A stretch of DNA of 63,796 nt, the filler included, from Reticulomyxa filosa (Eukaryota > Protista > Foraminifera): the NCBI GenBank assembly GCA_000512085.1. It is 19 parts of 19 records of this genome, joined end to end, with 100 filler letters (N's around TTAATTAATTAA, not from the genome) between each part and the next. Parts side by side here need not be neighbours in the genome. Positions count along the whole stretch, not along the records: positions 27,056 to 40,864 come from ASPP01002406.1; 18 more parts are not named here. One strand, written 5' to 3'. Within the stretch, counting starts at the first letter, position 1; every line of letters begins with the position of its first letter. The notes beneath the pieces are model-generated. The model did no database searches and was not told where the DNA came from. It saw only the letters and a list, made by a program, of their open reading frames with translations. Shown here piece after piece: positions 28,163 through 30,881 of the stretch. The position numbers and the translations under genes are program-made.

Positions 28163-30881
28163 ATGCAAGTATTGCGAGCTTTCCAACGAAGTGCACATTT
28201 GTCAAAAGTAAGTTCATTGTCGAAGCTGTGGCCTACATGAGGGAGGGACGAGAGAAGCGTCTGAAGGGAGGGGTACGTGACGTGTACTGCACGTAAAGTT
28301 TGTTGAACAAAACGTTGTGATAGAGTAATGTTCGACGTTTTTCTCTTCCAGCTCACGGCACGGCTGACGGTGCATTGGTGAACCGTTTGTTGCAAAGAGG
28401 CACACCGGAATACGATGATCTGTGGAACAAATCGGCATCGGGAGATATGTACTCATTAAATTTGACCCACAGACATGCATGTGATATTGAATTATTGCTG
28501 AATGGAGCATTTTCCCCTTTGGAAGGTTTCATGACTTCGGAACAATATAATAAGTTTTGTATTATATACGATCGGTCGAAATTTTGGGGGGAATGAGAGG
28601 TTATGAATCTTTTACAGTGTGACCCTAAATGAAATAAACTTAAAAAAAAAAAGCTATAAATAAGTATCTCTGTGTTTTTTTCATGTACAAACAACAACAA
28701 ACCATTATAGAGTGGTTCGCGACATGAGATTGCCTGATGGCACAATATGGCCCATCCCGATCTGCTTAGACATATCTGAAGAACAGGTTTACACTTCATA
28801 CCCCAATCAAACACAACATTGCTCACTATACACGCACACGTAATAATAACTATGCAAAAAAAATTTTTTAAGACCAGTCGGTTAAAAAAAAAAAAAAAGA
28901 AAAAAGAATTTGCGAAATGACGTAACTGTGCGTGTGTGTTTGTATAAATGACTTGTTGTCAAGGCATTGGACATTGAACGCAAAGGGGTGGAACAAATCT
29001 TGTTGCGCGATGGCGAATACAACCCAATTGCAGTGTTGGATGTCAGTGACATTTACAAGCCAAACAAATCATTGGAAGCTCAGTCCGTATTTAATGGAGA
29101 CCCAGAACACCCTGCCATTGTCTTTTTAAACCAACATACCAAAAACATGTATATCGGTGGAAAATTGTACGGATTTCAATTGCCACCTCATTACGACCAC
29201 AAAGACTTGAGAAGTTCAAAAGCTTGAAACAAAGTGGTTTCATTCTATTTTTTTTTTTCTTTTTAAAAAAAAAAATTCTCTCTGAAATTTTCTTTAAATC
29301 GATTTCCAGCTTTTTTTTTTTTTTAGTTTGACAAAAAGAAACTTTGTATTTATCTTCACATTGCACAGAAACGCCTGAAGAGGTACGAAACTCGTTTGCG
29401 GAAAGAGGATGGAACAAAGTTGTTGCATTCCAAACACGCAACCCAATGCACAGAGCTCACTTTGAATTGACAAAGCGAGCATTGGAACTTGAACCTGGAA
29501 TGAATTTGCTGGTTCATCCAGGTTTATTACGAATACACTTCCCCCCTTTTCTTTTTCTTTCACACCTTATAAAAAAAAAGGGGGTAAATACTTTAAAAAT
29601 TTCCAGACAAATACTTTTTACCGTCCTTCTTTTCCCCCTCTTTTTAAAAAATTTTAAATCGCTCACGCATACTCAAACAACAATAACAAAATAAAAAAAA
29701 TAAAAAAAAAGTTGTGGGCATGACAAAGCCTGGAGACATAGATCATCACACACGAGTGAAATGCTATCGAGAAATAATGCCGAAATATCCAAAAAGCCGT
29801 GCTGATTTGGTCGTGTTCCCATTGGCAATGCGAATGGCAGGTCCTCGTGAGGCAATTTGGCATTGCATAATCCGCAAAAATTATGGGCTGACACACTTTA
29901 TTTTAGGACGAGACCATGCTGGTCCTGGAAGTAACAGCAAGAAAGTCGACTTTTATGGCCCTTATGACGCTAGAGATGCGGCTGTAAACATGAAAAGGAA
30001 TTAGGAATCAAATGCTTGGCCTTTGAACAAATGTTGTATAGTCCTCAAGACGACGAATACTATCCTCAAGACAAAGTGCCCAAAGGAAAGGAAGTATTGC
30101 AGTTGAGTGGCACGGAAGTTCGCAGAAGATTGCGCACCGGAGAAGAGATCCCAGAATGGTTTTCCTTTAAAGAGGTTGTGACCATTCTGCGAGAACAACA
30201 CCCCCCTCGACACAAGCAAGGATTTACTTTGCTCTTCACCGGATTGTCTGGAAGTGGCAAGTCCACGATTGCCAATGCATTGCGTGAGAAGTTGATGGAA
30301 ATTCAAGGCCGCCGAGTTGCCATGTTGGATGGAGATTATGTCCGAAAACTGATTTCCAGTGAACTTGGTTTCAGTGCGGAACACCGCAATTTGAACATCC
30401 GACGTATTGGTTTTATCAGCAGTCTGATTTCTAACGCTGGAGGTGTTGTCATTGCTGCTCCTATTGCGCCTTACAAAGAGTCGAGAGACTTTTGCCGACA
30501 AGTTTGTAGCGAAGTTGGTGGATATGTTGAAATCTTTGTGTCCACTGATTTGGACACTTGCAAAGTTAGAGATCGCAAAGGATTATATGCCGCATTTGAA
30601 CAAGGAAAGATCAAAAAAAGTTTTGCTTGTTGTTTTTGTATTTTGTTTACATCAACAACTCGGTACATATTGTATGTATACATATAATTTTTTTAAAAAA
30701 AGTGACCGGCCTGGACGATCCTTATGAAGTCCCACAAAAACCAGAAATAACAATTGACACGGCAAAAGTGTCTGTTGAAGATGCGGTGAAGCGAATCATT
30801 GAGTTTTTGTTGAAGGAAGGATACTTAACTCGTGATATGGTACAACATGAGGAACATCTTAAAGAATTAACTGGCCTGTAA
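28163..30881 (+). CDS. sat: Bifunctional ATP sulfurylase / APS kinase (Sat-CysC order), 7 exons, predicted mitochondrial presequence
   Basis: Exons 28163-28207, 28324-28553, 28711-28786, 28964-29213, 29369-29521, 29712-30619 and 30703-30881. Motifs: [43 protein letters not shown]-loop [28 protein letters not shown]. One homopolymer frameshift at 29986-29988. Confidence 0.95.

Follow-up and report, generated by a model that had tools for sequence, protein, structure and literature searches.

The window analysed here, a stretch of 63,796 nucleotides from the foraminiferan Reticulomyxa filosa, consists of 19 contigs with 18 N-padded linkers between them; genes flanking a linker are therefore not true neighbours. 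One of its pieces (27056-40864, 13,809 nt) carries a gene which, once spliced, has seven exons and codes for a protein of about 613 amino acids (Table 1). Its Pfam domains follow each other in the order PUA-like, ATP sulfurylase, APS kinase, the reverse of that in animal PAPSS, where the APS kinase lies N-terminal to the ATP sulfurylase. The protein reaches 708.8 bits against the family NF004040 (PRK05537, bifunctional sulfate adenylyltransferase/adenylylsulfate kinase), for which the cut-off is 669. The closest solved structures are the fungal 1m8p (E 1e-172) and 1i2d, with the bacterial bifunctional enzymes 2gks (3e-141) and 3cr8, while the eukaryotic PAPSS-type or plant-type sulfurylase structures 7fh3 and 4maf come in at only about 3e-24. 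Judged from its sequence, the gene belongs with the ATP sulfurylase–APS kinase fusions of fungal/bacterial type. Because the sulfurylase motifs (QTRN..HxxH and GRDHAG) and the P-loop and LDGD of the kinase, which we take to be the catalytic signatures of these enzymes, are intact in the spliced model, both activities are likely.

Table 1. Features of the sulfurylase–kinase gene, in window positions
Feature	Position	Strand	Basis
5' UTR, at least this far	28113..28162	+	X3 contig alignment; in-frame TAG at 28157-28159, six bases 5' of the ATG (window sequence)
Exon 1, residues 1-15 of the predicted mitochondrial presequence	28163..28207	+	contigs; start of P0001 matches
Intron 1, 116 nt, GT..AG, phase 0	28208..28323	+	X4, X6 exact; X1, X3, X8 with a variant codon
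Exon 2, residues 16-21 close the leader; R-R-F/S at 28333-28344	28324..28553	+	contigs
Exon 2, mature ATP sulfurylase (PUA-like domain)	from ~28342	+	confident fold from about residue 21
Exon 3	28711..28786	+	contig joints 28553/28711 and 28784/28962 (cut +2); GT..AG check
Exon 4, PUA-like domain	28964..29213	+	
Exon 5, ATP sulfurylase QTRN and HxxH motifs	29369..29521	+	
Exon 6, ATP sulfurylase GRDHAG and APS kinase P-loop, LDGD	29712..30619	+	acceptor inferred from X4 record positions and GT..AG
Exon 7, APS kinase end and stop codon	30703..30881	+	joint 30619/30703 in X1, X4, X6

The reading frame of exon 6 is shifted near 29985, where the window is one base short of the contigs of three sequencing runs (X1, X4 and X6). 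Since all three have the base, and since the site adjoins a short A-run, the missing base is probably an assembly error. The public gene model RFI_02457 spans it by a false intron, at a cost of about 18 residues, and has wrong acceptors for exons 5 and 7. The other recognised genes of the contig are of WD40 and TRAF-zinc-finger types, with no cluster of sulfur genes. WD40-repeat genes lie at 32405-34448 (-), 35550-36635 (-) and 4070-4675 (+), one of them adjoining a TRAF zinc finger, and they likely belong to an expanded family. The preceding contig has an ATG8 gene with introns (24669-25077, -), and there are fragments of a histone deacetylase (2952-3908, -), a POT-family transporter (59798-60376, +) and a mevalonate diphosphate decarboxylase (61432-62022, -).

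Splicing of the first exon

An earlier note on this DNA had proposed that the enzyme has a hidden first exon coding for a mitochondrial-type presequence. The coordinates and the reading were correct: the exon, of 45 nt or 15 codons, opens with an ATG at 28163 and is followed by a GTAAGT donor at 28208; 28323 is the last base of the acceptor TAG, and the exons are joined in phase 0. Hidden, on the other hand, it was not, as RFI_02457 (P0001, ETO34631.1) begins with the same leader. Six runs of 11 listed (X1, X2, X3, X4, X6 and X8) were aligned to the window in the form of transcript-like contigs, assembled from close relatives of this isolate and mostly 90-98% alike; that these runs are RNA is a guess ('RNA?'), none of the 11 being on record as such. 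The contigs of X4 and X6 skip exactly 116 nt (28208-28323), bordered by GT..AG. Those of X1, X3 and X8 pass from 28207 to 28327 with three letters in between, which is the in-frame junction with a variant codon. The junction 28207/28324, which the earlier note wished to see in transcripts, is present in five of the six runs aligned (five studies), in contigs presumed to be RNA, X2 having no coverage of it. A contig of 2001 nt from X4 covers the gene and lacks all six introns.

Assembled contigs inform on neither start sites nor expression level. Nevertheless, the X3 contig aligns without splicing across 28113-28208, through exon 1, and the window holds no ATG between 28113 and 28163 (28113-28162 was searched), which makes 28163 the first start. 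The leader exon is real, and it is the first exon. Two other ways of splicing the region were considered, and neither is used by any contig: an alternative first exon (ATG 28237, donor 28273), and an acceptor at 28352 which looks stronger but does not match the phase of exon 1.

The leader and its counterparts in homologues

The leader is a stretch of 21 residues, basic, acid-free and amphipathic, ending in R-R-F/S (R19-R20-F21-S22). Simple measures of composition, moment and hydropathy, as distinct from the output of a trained predictor, give for residues 1-20 a count of 5 R/K and 0 D/E, a hydrophobic moment of 0.79 and a best 9-residue hydropathy of 0.39; none of the 565 internal 20-mers of the same protein is as basic, acid-free and amphipathic. 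AlphaFold2, run with a 74-row alignment, assigns residues 1-20 pLDDT values of 51 and 48, with a helix at 6-12, and residues 21-190 a pLDDT of at least 81, the confident fold starting at about residue 21. Ahead of the conserved HG stand 25 residues, as against 4-14 in 143 short-start homologues. The leader has the attributes expected of a presequence: it extends the N-terminus beyond that of bacterial homologues and lies outside the folded core, it is net positive with no acidic residue, it is predicted to form an amphipathic helix and is without a hydrophobic signal core, and it has an R-2/R-3 processing motif at its border with the mature protein. R19-R20-F21-S22 fits the R-3 rule for processing by MPP and Icp55.

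Counterparts of the leader were sought in homologues by a fixed rule, namely at least 55 residues before the conserved C-D-x-E-L and, within the first 20, at least 3 R/K and no D/E. Groups were taken from trees, with P0003, P0013, P0023, P0024 and P0031 placed by similarity, and the count left out partial rows as well as P0044, P0056, P0317, P0318 and P0346. Among cluster representatives, the rule is passed by 16 of 18 foraminiferan, 18 of 22 radiolarian-like and 8 of 11 cercozoan-like proteins, by 9 of 14 from other eukaryotes, and by none of 220 presumed bacterial proteins, a set defined by length. Most of the foraminiferan and radiolarian-like failures begin downstream and look truncated. 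When near-full-length homologues are considered irrespective of group, 65 of 252 have a Met start and at least 15 residues before the conserved (H/F)G; all but one of these 65 N-termini are basic and contain no more than a single acidic residue, the exception, P0118, sitting among bacteria. A search of 50% representatives returned a long N-terminus in 15 of 150 rows, about three of them leader-like.

The motif R-x-F-S lies directly ahead of the conserved protein start in every foraminiferan leader (16/16). Over 15 foraminiferan representatives, identity to the window leader is 27% (16-40%), and over the next 300 residues of the same proteins it is 68% (65-72%): as far as sequence tells, the properties of the leader are kept while its sequence drifts. 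Named carriers are Elphidium margaritaceum, Nonionella stella, Bolivina argentea, Paulinella chromatophora and P. micropora, and partial members from Ammonia and from Phyllostaurus siculus (Acantharia) fall in leader-bearing clusters. A leader of the same kind, as the earlier note suggested looking for in other Rhizaria, is found in foraminiferan, radiolarian-like and cercozoan-like homologues.

Predicted destination and product

Several destinations have to be weighed. A mainly cytosolic enzyme with an incidental leader, whether owing to initiation further downstream, to another first exon or to weak import, is very unlikely. Intron 1 does contain an ATG (28237) and an in-phase donor-like site (28273), but all contigs bridging the region skip the whole intron, and the next in-frame Met is residue 58 of P0001, deep in the folded core. 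Fungal and Dictyostelium homologues are given as cytosolic (PMC2275785, Table 1), yet the rhizarian groups retain this type of leader. R. filosa also has a second, partial paralogue, P0009, but its P-loop and LDGD are altered and its branch is long.

Import into peroxisomes by way of a PTS2 signal is highly improbable. Residues 5-13 do match R-A-x5-H-L, a minor PTS2 pattern, and many foraminiferan orthologues end in K-x-L. However, the PTS1 pattern is S/A/C-K/R/H-L, which leaves K-x-L outside it, and of the 58 eukaryotic homologues examined only 4 have a PTS2-like pattern, as has only 1 of the 16 leaders from foraminifera. What is conserved is R-x-F-S, and not an R-x6-H/Q-L/A nonapeptide.

A plastid, a kleptoplast, a chromatophore or the secretory pathway is hardly credible as a destination. 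Among leader carriers, Nonionella, Elphidium and Paulinella hold plastids or chromatophores; R. filosa, however, is not known to have a plastid. The best 9-residue hydropathy, 0.39 here, stays at or below 1.6 in the rhizarian groups, and there is no bipartite signal, since a hydrophobic signal-peptide core is missing. The ATP sulfurylases of plants and algae are directed to the plastid (PMC2275785), but the present enzyme is of the fungal/bacterial fusion type and not of the plant/green-algal one.

The mitochondrial presequence put forward in the earlier note is the best reading, and the conservation of the leader across Rhizaria gives it strong support. The leader likely sends the enzyme into the mitochondrial matrix, where PAPS would be made. 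As with presequences in general, the amphipathic helix would be recognised via the TOM/TIM23 route; MPP would cut after Arg20 and Icp55 would then remove Phe21, leaving a Ser22 terminus. In the matrix, sulfate and ATP would yield APS and PPi, and APS and ATP would yield PAPS, as is known for the family, with matrix ATP and the removal of pyrophosphate presumably pulling PAPS formation forward.

This sequence of reactions could also be thought to run backwards, the mitochondrial enzyme turning APS and PPi into ATP and sulfate as the last step of sulfite oxidation. In N. stella, expression of sulfite-oxidation genes exceeds that of sulfate-reduction genes about 1000-fold, with the dependence on ATP/PPi left open by the authors (PMC11736642). 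Reverse flux would however require a dissimilatory APS reductase, of which there is no mention for N. stella in the portion of PMC11736642 covered here; and the fused APS kinase keeps its P-loop, a pattern seen in 55 of 58 homologues, which disfavours reverse flux and indicates PAPS. We consider this alternative very unlikely.

As for the fate of PAPS made in the matrix, analogy with Entamoeba gives about even chances that a mitochondrial carrier exports it for cytosolic or Golgi sulfation, the option that we favour. A tentative second option is that a PAPS reductase in the matrix turns PAPS into sulfite, which is the prediction for N. stella. Both may hold. Neither a pyrophosphatase, nor a sulfate importer, nor a PAPS/ATP carrier was found on the gene's contig, among 11 other open frames and two WD40 genes.

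Ancestry of the leader and comparison with known systems

Two trees were built, a quick IQ-TREE run and a FastTree, with fungi, Dictyostelium and Toxoplasma missing from both. In the former, a branch with SH-aLRT 99 separates the 34 eukaryotic rows from the rest. The foraminiferan clade (100) groups (94) with two marine clades, one of which contains the Phyllostaurus cluster, and the Paulinella clade is sister to these (support of 98 for the whole group and of 81 for the Paulinella side). The latter, with 89 rows, is in agreement and shows a further clade of 13 eukaryotes lying outside, most of them with similar leaders. The pattern matches the accepted split between Retaria and Cercozoa, and suggests that a targeted enzyme was inherited vertically and that targeting was already in place in the ancestor shared by Foraminifera, Radiolaria and Cercozoa. 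We lean, on these sequences, towards PAPS synthesis in ordinary mitochondria being ancestral to Rhizaria and extending to further eukaryote lineages. Because the leader is found in a plastid-less species and across Rhizaria, it is probably older than kleptoplasty and anoxic life. An alphaproteobacterial (endosymbiont) origin of the enzyme was considered and is not favoured by these two trees, Rhodobacterales falling within the bacterial side and not as sister to the eukaryotes.

The rows of the outside, non-rhizarian clade (L001-L004, P0316, P0320, P0322, P0323, P0325, P0329, P0331, P0335, P0336, P0344 and P0358) come from genes read as single open frames, with leaders mostly of mitochondrial type; their neighbours are eukaryotic housekeeping genes, a zuotin gene being found near both L002 and L003. 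Two further kinds of relative deserve a word. The partial R. filosa paralogue P0009 has the window gene as its sister and a long branch of its own; with the P-loop and LDGD of its kinase changed, it may be decaying, or becoming regulatory like the fungal domain. Seven relatives of 703-1135 residues (P0470, P0492, P0494, P0503, P0512, P0517 and P0543) have an N-terminal hydrophobic stretch, resembling a type II membrane anchor, before the sulfurylase-kinase, and they may be secretory-pathway PAPS synthases.

In reviews, the activation of sulfate in mitochondria is considered rare. Should the leader be functional, the matrix is where a large supergroup of ecological importance makes its sulfate donor, and a rhizarian mitochondrial PAPS carrier and pyrophosphatase are predicted. 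If the ancestral reading is true as well, mitochondrial sulfate activation would be the normal state of the whole supergroup, and not a peculiarity of Euglena, of anaerobic amoebae and of a single kleptoplastic foraminiferan. Reticulomyxa and Paulinella offer culturable systems in which to test this.

A matrix location is not general, since for human, yeast and Acanthamoeba alike the PAPSS/MET3/MET14 orthogroup is without a MitoCarta member (PMC13632651, supplement row). In the FASTA file of Dictyostelium spatial proteomics, probably a mitochondrial compendium (PMC13648671), no sulfurylase was found by name or motif; line breaks may split the motif there, and the tables of that source use accessions, which weakens a search by name. 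Stygiella was considered as a bearer of the pathway and dropped, its paper having sulfate in methods and references only, and the Paramikrocytos paper mentions the pathway for Entamoeba only. No description of the leader in Reticulomyxa, radiolarians or cercozoans was found in a literature thinly covered for subscription journals.

The fungal (1m8p, 1i2d) and bacterial (2gks, 3cr8) relatives share domain order and fold family with the window protein, without the leader. In the fungal enzyme the kinase-like domain has a regulatory role (PMC2275785), and the alignment shows an altered P-loop in it; that of the window protein is still the catalytic one. In Entamoeba mitosomes and the mitochondrion-related organelles of Archamoebae, PAPS is made within a mitochondrion-derived organelle, as is predicted here (PMC10711303, PMC4621310), and a PAPS/ATP carrier of Entamoeba exports it to cytosolic sulfotransferases (PMC4621310). 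Archamoebae are anaerobes with reduced organelles and a separate ATP sulfurylase and APS kinase, in contrast with the single fused gene of the window, and their sulfate activation pathway has, in the part of that source covered here, not been seen in the organelles of other Amoebozoa (PMC10711303). The Entamoeba sulfurylase, moreover, is reported to use internal targeting signals (PMC7465240), where the window enzyme has a leader of the classical N-terminal kind. Euglena gracilis has an ATP sulfurylase with a mitochondrial presequence, but its enzymes are of green-algal plastid origin and work with APS reductase and sulfite reductase (PMC2275785). The same source treats Euglena as an exception, the fungal and Dictyostelium enzymes being cytosolic. 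The window protein is not a plastid-derived, unfused sulfurylase of the Euglena type, its best structural relatives being fungal and bacterial fusions. A pathway cytosolic in textbooks is likewise provided with mitochondrial leaders in the TPI-GAPDH of stramenopiles and cercozoans, including Paulinella (PMC3527533); the pathway is a different one, and the likeness is an analogy only.

The nearest precedent is N. stella, in which Gomaa et al. (2024) predicted, using TargetP 2 and PredSL, that the bifunctional enzyme and a PAPS reductase are mitochondrial; no sulfite reductase is expressed according to the part of that paper covered here, and the species is called the second chloroplast-bearing case after Euglena (PMC11736642). 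The list of lineages in the earlier note (Entamoeba, Mastigamoeba, Euglena) is incomplete, as it lacks N. stella. Mitochondrial PAPS synthesis in a rhizarian is an already published prediction and the present case is not the first, because that paper assigns the same bifunctional enzyme to the mitochondrion (PMC11736642). The N. stella protein P0020 is an orthologue of the window protein, in the same foraminiferan clade (100), 64% identical and with a leader containing R-x-F-S. Already known, then, were the gene annotated with its leader (RFI_02457) and a predicted location for one orthologue; what is added here, on the strength of sequence comparison, is the breadth of the leader across Rhizaria, including a species without plastids. 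In N. stella the trait was framed as that of one kleptoplastic species from anoxic sediment (PMC11736642), whereas R. filosa is a freshwater, plastid-less organism and the leader is also found in radiolarian and cercozoan relatives, both cases being predictions. If the leader works, the case of N. stella needs no tie to kleptoplasty or anoxia.
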